A stretch of 63,648 nt of DNA, counting the filler, from Reclinomonas americana ATCC 50394 (taxonomy: Eukaryota), in assembly GCA_048213135.1 (NCBI GenBank). It is 5 parts of 4 records of this genome, joined end to end, with 100 filler letters (N's around TTAATTAATTAA, not from the genome) between each part and the next. Parts side by side here need not be neighbours in the genome. Positions count along the whole stretch, not along the records: positions 1 to 26,058 come from PS015013.1; 4 more parts are not named here. The stretch is one strand, 5' to 3'. Shown one piece after another: positions 3,001 through 62,929 of the stretch (the first letter of the stretch is position 1; each line of letters opens with the position of its first letter). A program made the position numbers and the translations under genes. A model generated the notes under the pieces. The model was not told where the DNA came from. It was given only the letters and a program-made list of their open reading frames with translations, and made no database searches.

Positions 3001-5256
3001 GAATGGCGTGCTCTTCATCGCGCCAGGAGCACTCACTGCCAACGCCTTCCCCATGAACATTGGTGTCAGCGTGCAGACGCAAATCAGTCTGTACGGCAAC
3101 AACCTGTACGTGCAAGATTCGCAGCTCTTCATCCTCGACGATGGCGTGGCGTGCGACAACATGGTTTGTCGGGCTCATTTTTTCTGCTGTCTGCATTGTG
3201 CTGCGCGGTCTCATTATCTCTTCTCGAACAGGACACTGTTACCGGTTCGCAGTACGCCACCGTGGGCCCGCTGACGGGAGGCCCGTCCACCATGTTCGCG
3301 CAGATCACGGTGTCGCAAGCTGGCAACTACATTCCGTGCATGCGTGTCACGGGCGCGCCCAAATTCAAGACTGTCCCCGGCAGTCCGCTGATGGTGTTGG
3401 GTGAGTGGCTTTCCTCGTGCGATGTGAATTTGTGAAGGGCGGGTGCTGAACGGTTNNNNNNNNNNNNNNNNNNNNNNNNNNNNNNNNNNNNNNNNNNNNN
3501 NNNNNNNNNNNNNNNNNNNNNNNNNNNNNNNNNNNNNNNNNNNNNNNNNNNNNNNNNNNNNNNNNNNNNNNNNNNNNNNNNNNNNNNNNNNNNNNNNNNN
3601 NNNNNNNNNNNNNNNNNNNNNNNNNNNNNNNNNNNNNNNNNNNNNNNNNNNNNNNNNNNNNNNNNNNNNNNNNNNNNNAACTGACGCTCTGCACGTCGCC
3701 GGGGGTGATGACTGGCGTCGCATTCGGGCCACGGAACTTGACGCACACAATGAAGCTGCCAGCCTACGCACACACGGTATATCGCTGTGTCAGTGCACAC
3801 GCGACTGCAAACGCGTGCCTGGTGTGCGCAACTTGCAGCGGCGTCACCGGCACCACCAGTGTCAGCGTTGTGCGAGTCAGCGTCACCGTGCCGACCTGGA
3901 TCTTGGCCGAGTTGGCATTGGCATTGGTGCATGCGTCGGCAAGGACCTGCACAAGAAAAAATAGAAGCACCGGGGTGGTGAGTCGAGTGGAGCAGTTGCT
4001 GCTGTTGCGCCTGGGGTGCACACAGACCCTGTTGCGAGACGACGGCACGTCAATCACGTACACCGTGTCGTACGCGGTCAGTGCATTGCCGGAGACCACG
4101 ATACTCGTCTGCACGTTGAGGGCCAGAGTCGGTGCCTCGATGGATGTCGGTTGAGGAACTGTGCGACTCGCNNNNNNNNNNNNNNNNNNNNNNNNNNNNN
4201 NNNNNNNNNNNNNNGCGTGACTGGTGACGTGTGCGTTCCGTCAGCGCTTCATCATTCCGCTCACGATGCTGCTAATGATCACCAGGCCCGCAAGCCACCG
4301 AGTTTGTGCCGCACCTGACGTTCTCGTCGCCGGCCTTTGTGCATCAGGTGACGGTCACCGGCCAGGGTCTGTCGTACCTCGACTCTGTGGTGGTCATCAA
4401 CGCGGCCGGCGCGTGCACCAATCCTGTGTTCGCCGACGGTGTTTCGATCAACACACCGTTCACGAGCACCGACGCCACGCAGCTGTACTTTGGTCTCACT
4501 GGTGCGTGTTTCGGCGTGTATCCATGCATGCGCTCGCACTCCACTCACCGACTGTGTCACCAGTGAATACGGCCGGCACCTACTCGTACTGCATCAAGTA
4601 CCCGCAGACCACCGCCTACGTGCCCATTGGCTCCTCGTTCTCCGTGCAGCGGTTGTACGTCAGCGATTTCTCGCCGTCGTTGATCCCCACCAGCCAGTCG
4701 AGCATCAGTGTCACCATCACTGGCTCGGCACTGCGTGCGAGCGACATGATTCGTGTGATCCCCTGGACGAGCCCGTGCATGGGTACCGACCTCGTCAACG
4801 CCAATGGCATCCAGATCGGCGCCGTCAGTTGCGTTCTCTCTCGTACATCTCATTTGCGTGTGGCAGTCGATCTCACCTCGTGACGCACAGCTGCCAATCC
4901 GAGCGGCTCGAGTCTGGTGGTGCCGGTTATGGCGAACACGCCCGGTACTTACCGCATCTGCATTCGCTTCACGGAAACCGTTGAATTCGGTGGCATTGTG
5001 GGTGGCCAGCTGGTGGTCGAAGGTCTACCACCGTTTTGTCGTTGTCTGCTTTTGTGTGGTCTTTCCGTCGTTGACCCCCTTGCGTGTCTCAGGTTCCAAT
5101 GGCAGCGGTCTGTCGCCTGGCGTCCTGGCCGTGGTCATCATTGTCCCCATTGTGGCTGTGGCGGTCCTCGTGGTGCTCGGCTTGTGGTGGTGGCGCCGAC
5201 GTCGCGCACCGCGCAATGTCGACGCCTCGGACACGGGTCCGTACGGCACCCTGTGA
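40..5256 (+). CDS. Large single-pass surface protein with tandem IPT/TIG-like (Ig-fold, 2-Cys) repeats; 5' partial, about 20 exons
   Basis: Spliced GT-AG exons give repeats such as 'TFTPPTIAPNILTVITFTGDNL...C...AGTSYSMCIKY' and 'DFSPSLIPTSQSSISVTITGSAL...C...PGTYRICIRF'. A C-terminal TM segment 'VLAVVIIVPIVAVAVLVVLGLWWW' is followed by RRRR. One repeat lies on an inverted contig (3679-4171). Confidence 0.75.
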
Positions 5257-8002: not shown

Positions 8003-10277
8003 TTAGTACAGTGTGGCATTCCTAAATGACACGAATAATCTCGACGAGCCGGTAAAGTCGACTCCGCGCAGCGTAGCACGCTCAAACGTCGCGTTCTGCA
8101 GGTCGGCATCGCGAAAGGTCGAGTGCGTGAGGATGGCCGCGGAGAAATCGCCGCCAGCCAGCTTGGCCGACGTGAAGTCGCAGTTGACCAGCTTGGCCTC
8201 CACAAACAGACGCCGCTGCTTGTCGTCGTAGCACGCTGTGCGGCGAGGTAGCAGTGAGTCGAGAATTGGCCCGGCGATGGAAGGCCAGTGGGAGAACGCA
8301 CAGAGATCGCAATGTCGAAACGAGACGCCCGACAGGTCCGCGTGACTGAAATTGATGACAGTGAGGTGTCGCAGCTGCAGCGAGCCAAAGGCGGTGGTGC
8401 GGAGGTCGCAAAAGGTGAGCTGCAGGGTGCCACCAGGTGGCGCTTTGCTTATCAGTCGACACAATTCGTCTTGTGCGACCACACTGCGAGTGGCAGTCGG
8501 GGTGTGTGATGCCGACCGAGCCAGTGCCTCCTTTTCGCGGTGCTCCTTGATGCGACGCAGACGACGCCCGACAGCGCGTCGCAGTCCATCCAGAGCAAAA
8601 AACTGCGCCTCCACAAACAGCTGCTTCAGGCAGCGTTCGTCGGTGGGATCGACATCCAGCACGCCTCCGCGGCCATCCACACAAGTGCGCAGGAAGCGCA
8701 AGATGTGGCGAAACAGATCGGGCTCACGATCCAGGAACACCTGCCGCACCACATCGGTGAGTCTCATCGGCGTCGCGCTTTCCATCTCTCCGTTGCCGAC
8801 AAGGAACAAACCCGTCCGTGCGAATCAGTGGCAAGATCGAAGCGACCGGAGAACATGGCGGCGAGCATCGAGTTACCGTCGCGACTCAGCGTGTCGCGCG
8901 AGGTCACAAATGTCTCGCCGCCCACATTCAGCTCCACCATGGTCTCCGACCCCGTTGCCGCTCGCGAACCGCCATTCAACACTTGCACAAAGTGCAGCGG
9001 ATCGGTGGACTCGCACACCGGCGCCAGCTCCTGCATCGTCGTCACGGTTTGAGAGACTGCATCCACAGCCATCACACCACCACGCTCTTCTCTTCTTACG
9101 CAACATCCGGCTCCCACTCCAACTCGTACACCTGCGTGTTGCTCGAGGCGCCACTGTCTCCCCTGCCTCGGCTCCCTGCAGAAGCCGCGGCTGTCGACGA
9201 GGAAGGTGCTCGGCCGGCGGCCACTGCAGCCGCTGCCGCCGCCGCTGCTGCAACAGCAGACGTCGACATGGGTCCACTGCTTGTCGAGCGCGGCCGGCTG
9301 CGCAACGCCCCCGCACCGCCCAGCGGCTGCACATCGTCGCCGACCGACAAATACACCATGTCTGCTTGCCGCATCCGCTCACCGGCCGCCATGGCCGCCG
9401 CCTCCTCCGCCTCCGCCTCGGCCTGTCGGCTCGCATCGCCACCGCTTTCATCGCCATCACCGTTGCCATCAGCAGCAGCAGCAGCAGCAGCACCATAGTC
9501 GTCGTCTGAATCCTCATCGGATCCCGTGCCTGACTCCCACGACGGCGTCGACGGCCGCACAGCAGCCGCCTGTGCACCTGTGACGACAACAGGCTCCTCC
9601 CTGCGTGAGCATCGCGGGTGAGCACAGTGTGTCACTCACAATCCTCCCAACACCAGACGCAACTGGATTGGCGGCGGCTGATGCAGCGGCGGTGGCGGTG
9701 GTGGTGGTGGCAGCGGTGGTGAGGACGGCGAGTGATGCGAAGACAGAGGTCCAGCGGCCGCCACGGCACCAGCTGCGTGATAGCTATGATGATGATGAGG
9801 TCGATGCACACGCGCCGCCGATGGTGGCGACGAGGAGATGGGTGGCATGGAGGCAGCAGCCGCCGATGAAGACGACACAGACATGGCGGAGGCGGAGGAG
9901 GCCTGCGCGGCAGCAGCAGCAGCTGCGGCCGCCACTGCTGCTGCGGCCGCGGCGGCCACCTCATTGCCGGTGACTGCGAGCAGTGCAACCTCGGGTGAGC
10001 TGGCTTCGCGGGGCATCATTGGGCCGCCACGGTCGGGCGGAGGGAATGCGTGGAGTCGACGAGGCCGTGAGCGACCAGCGCCAGTGCCTGTGCCGCCGCC
10101 GCCGCCGCCGCGGTGCTCGTCGTCGTCGTCGTCGTCGTCATCGTCGTCTTCGTCTTCTTCTTCGTAGGGTTCGGTGCTGTCGACGTTGCCGGTGGAGAGG
10201 AAGGAGGCGAGGTCGTCGATACGAGAGGTCAGCTCGATGGAGGGTCGAGGCGCACCCGCTGCATCCTCCCCGCTCAT
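8003..10277 (-). CDS. KCTD/T1-type BTB domain plus pentapeptide-repeat protein (KCTD9/FIP2-like) with long low-complexity N-terminus
   Basis: 'VELNVGGETFVTSRDTL...SMLAAMFSGRF...GR|VFLDREPDLFRHILRFLR' is a T1-BTB signature. The C-terminus has A[D/N]L/F pentapeptide repeats (FSHADLSGVSF, DFTSAKLAGGDFSAAILTHSTFRDADLQNATFERATLRGVDF). Four in-frame introns. Confidence 0.85.
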
Positions 10278-21061: not shown

Positions 21062-21201
21062 TGCGATTGTCGATGGTTGTTTGCTGCTGCTGTGGTGACG
21101 CGTCGAATGCAACAATTCACTGTTTTCACTTGTGTGCTTTTTGACAATGGGGATGGCGATGAGAGACTGCCTTGTGTGTTGTTTTTTCGCTTCTTGTTTG
21201 A

Positions 21202-23993
21202 TCACAGCAAGTTGCAGTCGTCTCCCTTGTCCTTGCGCCTCTGCTTCTCCAGCGCCTTCATCTCGTCCTTCGTGATCTGTGGTGTGTGTCGCGCTTGTGA
21301 GTTATCGAGTGGAGGACGGGGGCTTCGAGGGCGCGGCGGGAACGCACCTGTCGACCTTCTTGTCGTGCGCGATGCTGCAGTTCGGCCAGGCGCCGCTGAT
21401 GATCCTGTGAAAAGGAAGCGATGAGTGAGGGAAGGCACAGCACTCGACGCAACGGGCGCACACATACCTCCTCCGCACGCTCATCCTGCCCGCACATCAA
21501 TGGCATACACAACAGAGTGAGAAACAGGTCCTCTAAGGCAAAGCGTGTGGAAAGATCACACAACACACACCTGTGACATGTTGCGACGACGGCGATGCTC
21601 CTGGCGCGCCTCCTGCTCCTCCTCGTACTGCAGCCGCCGTGCCAGCTCCTCGTCCGTTCTGCGAGAGAGACAGAGAGCGATAAGCAGATGCGGAGACACA
21701 GATTCCGTCTGCCGCGCGGCGCAACTCAGGGCCGGCGGGGTATTGCGGCGGACGATTGTAGTTGGGCTGGTGACGCGGATCCACAGCCTGCACATATGCC
21801 GATGTGGGATGCGCCGGATGCTGCGGGCCAGAGGACTGAGCGGGTGCCTGCTGCACGAACCAAACGAGGGGTGAGTGAGACGGAGAGGCGGCACAGCGGT
21901 GTGTTCCTTGCGTTGAAACACACACCCCGTGATGCTGTTGCAGGCTGGCCACGAATCCAGGGCCACAGTACTGATTGTTGCCGCTGACCTGCGCCACAGA
22001 GGAGGACGCGACTCACTTCAGTAACGCAGTCGAGCAAATATGCTCTTGTTTGAAATACGCAACATTCTCAAACAACTCCCACATGACGTCGGGCGCATCG
22101 AGGAAGCCAACATCGGTGGCCAGCAAGTACAGCCGACCGTGGAATTTGTACATGGTGCTGAAGTGATTGTTGCGGAAGAACACGGCCATTTCCGTCTGCG
22201 GCGAAAAAATGGATGAGTGTTGAGCGGCTGGCGATGAGAGAGACAATGCGCACCTCTCGCACGAGGTCCTGCAGCGCGCCAAGACCCCATTGTGTCAACT
22301 GACTCGCCGAGGCCTCCAGGAAGCTGTTCAACAAGTCGGCTTCGTACACCAACTGTTCCCTCTGCTCCTCTGTCATGCCTTGCGGTGGAGGTCCATCTGG
22401 GCACACGAGAGTTGGGCACTCACACACACACACACGAACACACGCACAGAGAGAGAGGTATGTAAAAGACGCACCATGCCGCAGACTTGAAGCGTTGATA
22501 ACCTGCTCCACCACTTGGTTGTAGCTCTTGTCGCCAATGATGCGCTTCAGCTCTTCGTTGGTGGGATCCACCACCCATCCGTGGTACAGGTTGATGCCCA
22601 TCATGTCGAACACGTCCATCTGCGACGTGTACTCAAAGTCCGACGGACTGTGCATGCCAAGTAAGCAATGCGAACAAAAACAGACGGCGGGAGATCCAAC
22701 AATGAGGGGGCGGACCTGCGGAAGCGCACATTGACGTCGAGGCCGCGGAGGAGCATGGGGAAGTGGCCAATCACATCCGACAAGTGCTCCACAAAGCCCG
22801 GCTGTTCTTGTTGCTGCACGCGACATGCGATGAGATCGAGAAAAAATGAAGCAACGTACTGGAAAGATGATGGCGGCACAAACCCTCTGCGTGTGTCTGA
22901 ACATGTAGTCGCCGAGTGTCTCGAGCAGTTCGCGCGCCGAAATCATCGAGATGTCGGAGTGGATGGAGATACACCGAGCCAGGAGGAGACCATTGGCTGC
23001 ATTGCCACCGTCAGCCACATCATCACAGATACATCACGGTCATCGCAAGCCATCACTCACCCAGTGCCTGATTGTCGTAGTCGACAGAAGGAGGAAGAGA
23101 AAGAAGGGGGTGAGCAAGTGACACAATAAGAGGGAATCACGGAAGGCCGGCTCACTGTGACAGCACACAACACACGTCAGTCAAGCAGCAGAACACAAGG
23201 CGGCGACCGCGCAAATGTCACTCACTGCACCGACAAAGGCGCGTGAGTGAGCAACACAATCACACCACGGACAACTTCTTGCCACTCAATCACTCACCCC
23301 AACAAAGGACACGGGCCGTTCTCATTCTGCAGCACTGCAAGCAGCAACACGCAGACCACCGTGAGCCAACCCAACAACACGCACACATCGCCACACTCAC
23401 AATCATCGAACACGCACCAATCGACACCGGTTGCCCGTGGAACGAGGTCCGCTTCAGGTGGAACATACTCTCGCCTCCCGACATGGGAGCCGGTGGCGCC
23501 GCACCAGCCGCCGGCACTGCTGCGACTGGAGGCGGCGGCGGCGGAGGCGGCAACAACACTGCCCAACACTTTATGAGCACACACACGCAGACGGACAGAC
23601 GATTCTCTCTTAACAAATACCTTGCTGCGCCTCCTGCTCGGCCACTGCGGCCGCCACCGACGCATCCTGCTCGACTTGTCGCTGCACACTGGCGGGCGAC
23701 ATGAGACCCGGGTGGTGTTCCCGCTGCACAGCGGCCTCTGACACAATCACTGGTGCAGGAGGTGGCACTGGATGTGCTTCTTGTGCTGGTGGAGGTGGTG
23801 CTGCTGCTGCGTGATAGACAGGAGCGGCGATCACCTCTGCAGCTGCTGTGTGTCACAGAGCGTGTGTGTGTGTGAGAAATCGTTTGACAGGAACATCATC
23901 TCGTGTTGTTGTTTTCACGCAACGATGTGCGGCCACGACTTCTGTGGCGAACGGCGGCAACATGTCGTCATCTGCGACGACTGGATGCGACAT
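21202..23993 (-). CDS. MINDY1: MINDY-1/2 family K48 deubiquitinase (FAM63/DUF544) with MIU motif and C-terminal CaaX
   Basis: Catalytic Cys motif 'QNENGPCPLLALAN', 'GLDVNVRF', 'LYHGWVVDP', 'SASQLT', catalytic His 'VFFRNNHFSTM', 'LYLLATDVGF', MIU 'DEELARRLQYEE', and ends 'DCNLL*'. Confidence 0.93.
23068..23299 (-). other. Complex intervening sequence: three nested spliceosomal introns (double [D1,2] stwintron)
   Basis: Minus strand reads TTG|G G GTGAGT..73 nt..GTGCAG TGAGT..TCACAG TGAGCC..ATCAG|GCACTGG. Only sequential excision restores the frame PCPLL-ALAN. Confidence 0.8.
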
Positions 23994-51422: not shown

Positions 51423-54015
<2,593 letters not shown>

Positions 54016-56092: not shown

Positions 56093-56192
56093 NNNNNNNN
56101 NNNNNNNNNNNNNNNNNNNNNNNNNNNNNNNNNNNNTTAATTAATTAANNNNNNNNNNNNNNNNNNNNNNNNNNNNNNNNNNNNNNNNNNNN
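56093..56192. other. Artificial scaffold spacer
   Basis: N44-TTAATTAATTAA-N44. Confidence 0.97.
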
Positions 56193-60659: not shown

Positions 60660-60759
60660 NNNNNNNNNNNNNNNNNNNNNNNNNNNNNNNNNNNNNNNNN
60701 NNNTTAATTAATTAANNNNNNNNNNNNNNNNNNNNNNNNNNNNNNNNNNNNNNNNNNNN
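60660..60759. other. Artificial scaffold spacer
   Basis: N44-TTAATTAATTAA-N44. Confidence 0.97.
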
Positions 60760-61104
60760 AGGGGGGCAAGACACGGTGCCGGCGGCGACGGCCGGGTAGT
60801 TCTTGCAGTTGTAGTAGCACGAGCAGGTCAGGTCAGACTGGCAGAAACCGTTGCTGTTGCAGGCGCCCGGAGCATTGGTGCACACGCCGACCGCCGGCCA
60901 CACCGCGGGGAAGGGAGACACGTCGCAGTTGGCACCCGAGTAGTAGCCGCAGCAGTTGCCATTGGTCAGGTTCGCAGTGCCGGGCGGGCAGCCGACAGTG
61001 CCGGCCTTGACGACGGCGTAGTTCTTGCAGGTGTAGTTGCAGCTGTTGGCCAGCGCGACCGCCACACACAGAGAGAGGACAGCGATGAAGAGGGTCTTGG
61101 ACAT
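60760..61104 (-). CDS. Secreted Cys-rich repeat protein, copy A (3' partial)
   Basis: Signal peptide MSKTLFIAVLSLCVAVALA; internal repeat SCxYxCKNYxxVxAGTVxCPP occurs twice, about 74 aa apart; no intron in the visible CDS. Confidence 0.8.
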
Positions 61105-62169
61105 TTTTCTAATTCTACGAGAGAGAAAGGAGGGTTGTTGGGGACTTGTTTTTCTATGCTCACGGGGGAGACGAACTGTAGGTGTGAATGAAGCTGACGC
61201 CGCCAAAAAACTTTTATCAATTCTTCCGATGCGATCATAATATGTCCACAAGTCCAGATGTACATGTGTTTCTCCGTTGTCGAAGAGCTGCTGGCCGTAG
61301 ACGCAGCTCTCGCTGCGCTCGACTACAGTGCATGCCAGTGTAGGGCAGTGCGTCTTTGGATGCTCGTCTACCCGGTCGGGCAGCAGTTGCGCACAGCAGA
61401 TTCAGAGATTCTGCGTCTCTCTCGCGGTCTGCATTCTCGCAAACCGTACACTTGCAGTATTGGTTTCTTAACAGGTGGCTGGCCGACGAAGGATGTGGCA
61501 GTGAGCGAGTGCCACGAGTGAGCATGTCGCGACTGATGAAGCGTTGCCTTGGTGTGTGTGGGAGTGGTGTGATTACAGTGGGGCGTGTTCGCTGCGGTTC
61601 GTTTCTGCTTCGAACATTGCTGGTGTGGGAACAAACAACACATTCATTCACCAACAAACAAGCAACAGCTGTCTTGATGACCAAGTTCAACCACATCCAA
61701 AACATCAACACAAACACCAATGTTGAGGCAGCAGCAGGTTCCTTGTGCGTCCGAACACGTCGAGAACTGCGAACTTCACCGCATCAGCGTGGTTGACCAG
61801 TGGATTTGACGCANNNNNNNNNNNNNNNNNNNNNNNNNNNNNNNNNNNNNNNNNNNNNNNNNNNNNNNNNNNNNNNNNNNNNNNNNNNNNNNNNNNNNNN
61901 NNNNNNNNNNNNNNNNNNNNNNNNNNNNNNNNNNNNNNNNNNNNNNNNNNNNNNNNNNNNNNNNNNNNNNNNNNNNNNNNNNNNNNNNNNNNNNNNNNNN
62001 NNNNNNNNNNNNNNNNNNNNNNNNNNNNNNNNNNNNNNNNNNNNNNNNNNNNNNNNNNNNNNNNNNNNNNNNNNNNNNNNNNNNNNNNNNNNNNNNNNNN
62101 NNNNNNNNNNNNNNNNNNNNNNNNNNNNNNNNNNNNNNNNNNNNNNNNNNNNNNNNNNNNNNNNNNNNN

Positions 62170-62284
62170 AGCCGACAGTGCCGGCCTTGACGACGTCGTA
62201 GTTCTTGCAGGTGTAGTTGCAGCTGTTGGCCAGCGCGACCGCCACACACAGAGAGAGGACAGCGATGAAGAGGGTCTTGGACAT
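62170..62284 (-). CDS. Secreted Cys-rich repeat protein, copy B (3' part in gap)
   Basis: Near-identical to copy A (one visible change, NYAVV to NYDVV), including the upstream sequence. Confidence 0.8.
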
Positions 62285-62929
62285 TTTTCTAATTCTACGA
62301 GAGAGAAAGGAGGGTTGTTGGGGGCTTGTTTTTCTACGCTCACGGGGGAGACGAAACTGTAGGATGCTTTCTGATGTGGCAGGTGTCGCCTTTTATGCTC
62401 CGGCGTGCCCGGGATAATCACACGCGCCCCTCCGCCTTGACGGAAGAACATTCACAGTTAATATTCCGCGATTGCTGACCGTAGTCGCAGCTCTCGCGCG
62501 CGGCGCTCGACTACGATGATAGTGTAGGGCACTGCATACGCATGTCTTCTGAGTCTTTGGCATGGTCGTCGTCCACCGGGCTGTGGCCACCCACGTGCAC
62601 GTGCACGGTCGGGCAGTAGTTGTCATGCAGATTCAGAGATTCTGCGTCTGAAATCTCACAAACCGCACGCGTACAGTATTGGTTTCGGTGCCGGTGGCTG
62701 ACCGAAGAAGGGGGTGGCAGTGAGAGAGTGCCACGAGTGAGCATGTCGCGACTCATTTGTGTGTGGGAGTGGTGTGATGACAGTGGAGCGTGTTCGGTTC
62801 GGAGGATTTGTCAGGCATCCAGTTGTCATTGTGAGTGCGTGCAGTTGTCTTCTAGATGTGTGTTATTCTTCATTCATTAATGATTCTGTCTATATATGAT
62901 TACATAGATCTCGCACGCGCTTGGTGGTG

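Follow-up and report, generated by a model that had tools for sequence, protein, structure and literature searches.

A 232-nt interruption at positions 23299-23068 (minus strand) of a MINDY-1/2 deubiquitinase gene of Reclinomonas americana is a candidate three-intron stwintron with a partly free order of removal, a reading to which we assign a probability of roughly 0.8. The interruption comprises introns of 73, 71, and 88 nt, and neighbouring introns overlap by a single G. In the proposed mechanism, three normal U2-type introns would stand in a row, with the shared G of each neighbouring pair belonging both to an acceptor AG and to a donor GT, and the spliceosome would pair splice sites across these short introns. 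Intron 1 would be removed first or second, always ahead of intron 2, whose donor would thereby be rebuilt. Intron 3 could leave last, from a rebuilt donor ([D1,2]), or before intron 2, in which case it would be cut from the shared G and the next exon's first G would rebuild the intron 2 acceptor ([A2,3]). All three productive orders would yield an identical mRNA, and removal of intron 2 ahead of intron 1, or skipping of the inner sites, would shift the frame just past the catalytic Cys. Judged from the genomic sequence, the locus is best explained as a chain of three introns linked by shared G's, which would be new beside the two-intron stwintrons known from fungi.

The MINDY gene, its interruption, and its ordinary introns

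The window, i.e., the whole stretch of DNA analysed, covers 63,648 nt of R. americana ATCC 50394 (assembly GCA_048213135.1) and contains 5506 N. An Rfam search of the window found nothing. Also present are a gene whose product combines a BTB/POZ domain with pentapeptide repeats (8003-9100, minus strand), a nucleotide-diphospho-sugar transferase gene (PF03407; 19246-20480, minus strand) that is nearly intronless in an otherwise intron-dense window, and two near-identical short cysteine-rich secreted-type reading frames, arranged in tandem and both entering gaps (60712-62451, minus strand). A 12-base AT-only spacer between two N runs (56138-56149) is probably an assembly linker rather than real sequence.

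The interrupted gene is a MINDY-1/2 deubiquitinase, as the sequence-only reading had recognised, and the interruption lies beside the catalytic Cys. The gene matches PF04424 (E 1e-27), possesses a Gln six residues ahead of the catalytic Cys together with the catalytic His motif, and has a CAAX-like C-terminal end. Human MINDY-1 chains match one of its exons (E 2e-15), and the Gln-to-Cys spacing is the same as in human MINDY-1, in which, according to the accessible text of PMC4942677, Gln131 makes the oxyanion hole and the catalytic Cys137 begins helix alpha1. The closest protein is 52% identical and aligns with the human MINDY-2 chain across the catalytic motif; few MINDY relatives were recovered by word-index protein searches. 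The true start lies further upstream of the modelled part, at a position that is not fixed. The features of the locus, all on the minus strand, are as follows.

21200..23558, minus strand: modelled part of the MINDY-1/2 deubiquitinase gene, based on PF04424, motifs, and an open frame
23300..23334, minus strand: 35-nt exon that encodes the oxyanion Gln and catalytic Cys and has C-P-L-L at its end
23298..23299, minus strand: two spare G's, each the first G of a rebuilt donor (23299 remains exonic via [A2,3])
23225..23297, minus strand: intron 1, 73 nt, GTGAGT...CAG, intact in the pre-mRNA
23243..23251, minus strand: branch-like CTCAC motifs of intron 1, with the A at 23248 or 23244
23212..23262, minus strand: predicted hairpin, found post hoc, pairing the intron 1 branch region with the in-place intron 2 donor
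23155..23224, minus strand: intron 2 body (71 nt counting G 23298), with a branch-like CTGAC at 23180-23176
23068..23154, minus strand: intron 3 body (88 nt counting either G 23299 or, when cut in place, the shared G 23155)
23114-23110, minus strand: branch-like CTCAC of intron 3
23061..23067, minus strand: 7-nt microexon, its first base being the G at 23067
22997..23060, minus strand: ordinary 64-nt intron 3' of the microexon
22884..22996, minus strand: next exon, its first base belonging to the codon that precedes helix alpha1's conserved Asn

The intron coordinates, the lengths of 73, 71, and 88 nt, and the junction between 23300 and 23067 proposed in the sequence-only reading are exact in the sequence. 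A GTGAGT donor begins at 23297, directly after the two spare G's (23299 and 23298). The inner CAG acceptors end at 23225 and 23155 and are followed by TGAGT and TGAGC, respectively; the intron 2 donor uses G 23225, which is also the last base of the intron 1 acceptor. Joining 23300 to the microexon gives a three-step product that is open through the following exons. Branch-like CTCAC or CTGAC motifs, previously noted ahead of the two inner acceptors, are found 19/23, 22, and 43 nt upstream of acceptors 1, 2, and 3, respectively.

For comparison, 39 ordinary introns were modelled by hand in genes for dihydrolipoamide dehydrogenase, aspartate aminotransferase, GSK3, and MINDY; the names other than MINDY were read from translations, and Pfam supports the domains of two. 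The spliced frame is open in all four genes. These introns are 57 to 115 nt long (median, 71; n = 39), with 38 of the 39 not exceeding 86 nt; all begin with GT, and all but one finish in CAG. Microexons of 4 and 7 nt are present in the window, the former at 53602-53605 (plus strand) in the dihydrolipoamide dehydrogenase gene with two ordinary introns flanking it. The intron sizes and the microexons fit intron definition, as an indirect observation. In the MINDY gene, one intron has two in-frame donors 24 nt apart (22883 and 22859, minus strand), giving lengths of 70 or 46 nt, of which the 70-nt form was modelled. A tandem CAG-CAG acceptor in the same gene (21851-21848, minus strand) may permit one-codon alternative splicing.

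Introns 1 and 2 have canonical U2 features, with acceptor scores of 10.1 and 7.1 that fall within the normal range. Intron 3 has GT, CAG, and a branch motif, together with a low acceptor score (-0.3, versus 2.7 to 11.5 in 38 ordinary introns, which are the training set and hence inflated) and a branch distance of 43 nt, versus 8 to 27 nt in 30 of the 31 ordinary introns having a motif. The earlier description of all three introns as normal in size suits the typical 73 and 71 nt; the 88 nt of intron 3 stands at the upper edge of the range and exceeds all but one ordinary intron. A single intron of 230 to 232 nt would be double the longest ordinary one. The donors of the cluster are GTGAG in 4 of 4 cases, versus 1 of 38 ordinary introns (p 4.5e-5), and on the window's own donor matrix, in which GTGCG prevails, their scores of 4.4 to 6.6 are low beside a median of 9.1.

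Another donor class, GTTGCG, occurs in 7 of the 39 modelled introns (52007, 52980, 53804, 43279, and 44420 on the plus strand; 22063 and 21725 on the minus strand). An exonic G precedes none of these seven, versus 29 of the 32 other donors (p 8e-6), and the class looks like the usual donor moved by one base. Because of this class, donor recognition appears flexible here, which counts in favour of a rival in which the 232 nt are excised in one step as a GG-AG intron, perhaps via an unusual U1 register, with the inner sites as relics. In the fold of the whole stretch, base pairing between the 5' G run and the last branch region favours the same rival, but the z value of that fold is only -1.9. 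The rival also conflicts with the invariable GT and the short lengths of the ordinary introns, with the normal scores and branch motifs of the inner acceptors, and with the apparent 5'-GGU start that marks a [D1,2] stwintron in fungi in the accessible text of PMC8469720. One-step excision is therefore very unlikely, and the three-intron reading is preferred.

Chance, necessity, and order of the three steps

The chance test asked for two internal sites, each a CAG followed by a G-less donor, that split the stretch into three pieces of 55 to 95 nt. With the strict donor tail TGAG[T/C], the layout arose in none of 200,000 dinucleotide shuffles and none of 200,000 order-3 Markov intron sequences; with any donor tail occurring in the window, it arose in 55/200,000 and 212/200,000, respectively. 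These figures exclude the additional match between two spare G's and two G-less donors. Among 38 ordinary introns, totalling 2742 nt, none contained an internal CAG with a G-less donor. When the window was scanned on both strands for shared-G pairs, three matches were returned, two being this locus's own sites; the third, at 3252 (plus strand), was rejected since by eye it lies within coding sequence. The layout, which the sequence-only reading had described as two acceptors each directly followed by a donor lacking its G, is seen at 23225 and 23155, is genuine in the assembly, and is far from chance.

A recent pseudogene or frameshifted allele with coincidental internal sites would account for the finding that the unspliced and one-step products stop soon past the Cys. 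Against this rival, no stop interrupts the modelled frame of some 420 codons, in which the catalytic motifs are retained, the gene has 12 other well-formed introns, and the inner layout has a chance probability of 1e-3 or less; the rival is left with little probability.

An overcalled G run in the assembly would simplify the locus: with two G's it would be one 230-nt GT-AG intron, and with three a two-intron stwintron of 73 and 158 nt. The assembly is gap-rich, and both variants can yield the product with the family's spacing, though via 230- or 158-nt introns or poor donors only. However, such introns lie outside the 57- to 115-nt range, and the frame is preserved through 21 other homopolymer runs of at least 4 bases that lie within or reach into 4741 nt of modelled exons. 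The overcall would also have to add exactly as many G's as there are G-less internal donors, themselves rare by chance. Among run lengths from two to six, four G's alone allow GTGAG donors and normal sizes throughout, and the variants with five and six do not yield the family product. An assembly error of this kind is accordingly improbable.

With the four G's of the assembly, the question of necessity can be put to the protein family. C-P-L-L, three residues, and the conserved Asn follow one another in 97 of 97 homologues showing the motif (156 examined), and an alternative spacing occurs in none of the 97. Enumeration of GT-YAG introns of 50 to 120 nt gave 15 in-frame products that keep the motif preceding the Cys, one of which has the family spacing; this product is reached by 12 paths, all using the same three cuts. 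When introns were allowed up to 400 nt, 17 products arose, the family product was reached by the same 12 paths and no others, and no one- or two-step GT-YAG route led to it. In a wider enumeration (GT or GC donors, any AG, and introns of at least 40 nt), 2747 in-frame products were scored with a profile of 100 homologues, and the three-step product ranked first (362.0 bits, versus 354.9 for the second), a modest margin of 7 bits. Unspliced RNA stops one codon past the C-P-L-L exon, and products retaining one or two spare G's run into a premature stop, which bears out the earlier claim that removal from the first GT shifts the frame. These results support three consecutive steps as the sole GT-YAG route to the conserved protein.

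The main mRNA might instead be another in-frame product, arising either from a two-step skip of the microexon, two residues shorter, or at the same length via off-consensus donors. Such products exist, at 350.7 and 350.9 bits (the latter being the same-length one) versus 362.0 bits. However, their shortest routes need introns of 229 to 236 nt, and their 50- to 120-nt routes take more steps, those inspected using donors like GTGACA and GTTGGG. They would also change helix alpha1, which begins at the catalytic Cys in the accessible text of PMC4942677. The uniform spacing in the homologues and the conserved position of the neighbouring intron, which anchors the microexon, speak against them as well, so that this rival is highly improbable.

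That position was examined by a metagenome pattern scan for the motif, which gave at least 118 loci (83 distinct cores). Among the matches listed, 113 of 118 loci are contiguous across the motif, and 5 of 118 have a GT exactly 7 nt past C-P-L-L, 4 of these 5 splicing to the conserved Asn within the available sequence. None of the 118 loci among the matches listed has an intron at the position of the triple intron. The position of the 64-nt neighbour (23060-22997), 7 nt after C-P-L-L, is common to other eukaryotes, and because this intron sits at a conserved position, the frame and the 3' border of the microexon are anchored independently. This lineage may have acquired the triple stack at a site 7 nt upstream of a more ancient intron.

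Exhaustive enumeration of the preferred three-intron reading gives three productive orders out of six, namely, 1-2-3, 1-3-2, and 3-1-2, and the 12 paths are these three orders times four placements of the independent 64-nt intron. The only fixed rule is that intron 1 precedes intron 2, because cutting intron 2 first destroys the intron 1 acceptor. Intron 3 is complete in the pre-mRNA from the shared G 23155, and it may leave before the others because the next exon begins with a G (23067), which then rebuilds the intron 2 acceptor. The obligatory inside-out order proposed in the sequence-only reading is thus not supported, and its claim that mis-ordered splicing shifts the frame applies to intron 2 before intron 1 and fails for early removal of intron 3, which gives the same mRNA. 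Its term "double [D1,2]" is valid as one of two equivalent readings; in the other, the middle intron is interrupted at both its donor and its acceptor, with [A2,3] operating through the exon G 23067.

A predicted hairpin and the lineage of the host

The predicted hairpin over the intron 2 donor has a free energy of -23 kcal/mol, a value equalled by 2 of 2000 plain shuffles and 8 of 2000 motif-fixed shuffles. Opening the in-place intron 2 donor costs 10.8 to 16.6 kcal/mol; among 37 ordinary donors, 0 or 1 is as costly to open, according to context, and the cost drops to 3.1 to 4.5 kcal/mol after removal of intron 1. The neighbouring ordinary donor is equally closed in one of three contexts, and the hairpin also covers the branch site and acceptor of intron 1 itself. 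The pairing is less telling because GTGAG and the CTCAC of branch motifs are inherently complementary, and the fold of the whole stretch reaches a z of only -1.9. In this post hoc model, the hairpin may mask the dead-end donor of intron 2 until intron 1 is gone. A branch-donor hairpin has been predicted for fungal sister stwintrons, among which the structure is not conserved according to section 3.8 of PMC9024468. In the whole-stretch fold, the G run and first donor (23300-23290) can pair over about 11 bases with the intron 3 branch region (23116-23107, minus strand), which recalls the near-terminal inverted repeats of fungal stwintrons.

An origin of the chain by tandem duplication of a single intron is not supported, as the introns have no similarity beyond the donor. 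Local scores among the four introns are 13 to 18, and pairs of ordinary introns have a median of 14 and a 95th percentile of 25. No sister copies of the constituent introns were found in the window.

The lineage of the host was approached through its aspartate aminotransferase, which shows at most 58% identity over its length among 81 homologues; for this protein as for MINDY, the databases searched contain no close relative. In a FastTree phylogeny of 82 aminotransferases, the window protein fell outside a clade of four named animals and three named fungi (support, 0.85). This weakly suggests a non-fungal host, and the placement is weak because it rests on one gene and three related fungi only.

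A broader interpretation is that shared-G intron chains are routine in this deep-branching non-fungal genome and that a conserved housekeeping gene can carry three levels of them, a hairpin blocking the forbidden order by concealing the middle donor as long as the first intron is present. We regard this as possible but rather doubtful. If it were true, stwintrons would arise generally from intron definition among eukaryotes, and the locus would be a natural reporter of splicing order. A chain of three introns in a non-fungal cell would directly attest intron definition in a lineage that has been little studied and would show introns accumulating within the splice signals of other introns. Since specific intermediates are predicted for three allowed orders and one forbidden order, splicing order would be measurable at a single 232-nt locus. 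The gene is of a kind that gene finders would label as frameshifted or as containing a GG-AG intron.

Comparison with known intron chains

In the accessible texts of the literature searched, stwintrons are reported from fungi only, either as units of two introns or, in a single case with spacer sequence, as a four-step arrangement. A full-text search for papers using the word "stwintron," judged by title and abstract, returned fungal studies, reviews, and passing mentions (PMC9860276 and PMC7730772). A literature search covering the main text of open papers found neither a three-intron shared-G chain nor, in agreement with the sequence-only reading, a non-fungal stwintron, and the accessible parts of PMC12403724, PMC9024468, PMC8469720, PMC5639578, and PMC7138796 contain no triple or non-fungal case. 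The stwintron authors saw no reason against occurrence in other kingdoms, as stated in the accessible text of PMC6616335, and three introns chained in a non-fungal cell would put that prediction to the test.

The anatomical features that define stwintrons recur in the R. americana locus. Intron 1 splits the intron 2 donor after its first G, and intron 2 splits the intron 3 donor or, equivalently, intron 3 splits the intron 2 acceptor; in silico, exact removal is achieved solely by consecutive standard reactions. The G's at 23299 and 23298 before the first donor and the G at 23067 after the last acceptor are those on which the [D1,2]/[A2,3] alternative depends. This alternative, with two routes to one mRNA, was demonstrated in fungi (PMC5587772, accessible text) and is also defined in the accessible text of PMC9024468. 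The Pezizomycotina [D1,2]/[A2,3] stwintrons (Helminthosporium solani; Trichoderma reesei DHA1), as far as the accessible text of PMC5587772 describes them, are similarly built of U2 introns overlapping by a terminal G, with one G preceding the first donor, another following the last acceptor, and two routes to one mRNA. Unlike these, the present locus has three introns and two shared G's, with 3 of 6 orders productive and one obligatory precedence; in addition, those stwintrons are proven in fungi, whereas the present candidate, known from its sequence, probably lies outside fungi. Having three introns and two shared G's instead of two and one, the locus is a variant rather than a plain member of the [D1,2]/[A2,3] type.

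The Xylariales [D1,2] stwintrons (accessible texts of PMC9024468, PMC8469720, and PMC12403724) also show an apparent GG start, and skipping of their inner sites likewise leaves a spare G and a frameshift. They too have a predicted hairpin that pairs the inner branch element with the next donor (PMC9024468, section 3.8). In contrast to them, the present locus has two nesting levels at one donor, and its constituent introns lack similarity beyond the donor and have no sister copies in the window.

The nearest higher-order case in the accessible literature is the four-step sequence of the Onygenales rtnA "dual intervening sequence," which is built differently. According to the accessible text of PMC6616335, it involves four splicing reactions and a second-order intron; like the present locus, it needs more than two consecutive U2 reactions in a partly free order. 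In rtnA, however, a larger intron that includes spacer sequence encloses both a [D5,6] stwintron and a separate intron, whereas the introns here follow one another without a spacer, each linked to the next through one shared base.

Recursive splicing, as described in the accessible accounts for Cryptococcus BOT1 (bioRxiv 10.1101/224170), Drosophila, and mammals, resembles the proposed mechanism in that an intron is removed in pieces and donors are regenerated at the acceptor. In recursive splicing, AG is followed by GT, and one-step removal yields the same mRNA. The present locus is not a case of recursive splicing at a zero-nucleotide exon, because both inner acceptors precede T and not GT; one-step removal from the first GT shifts the frame here because the AG and the GT share the G.
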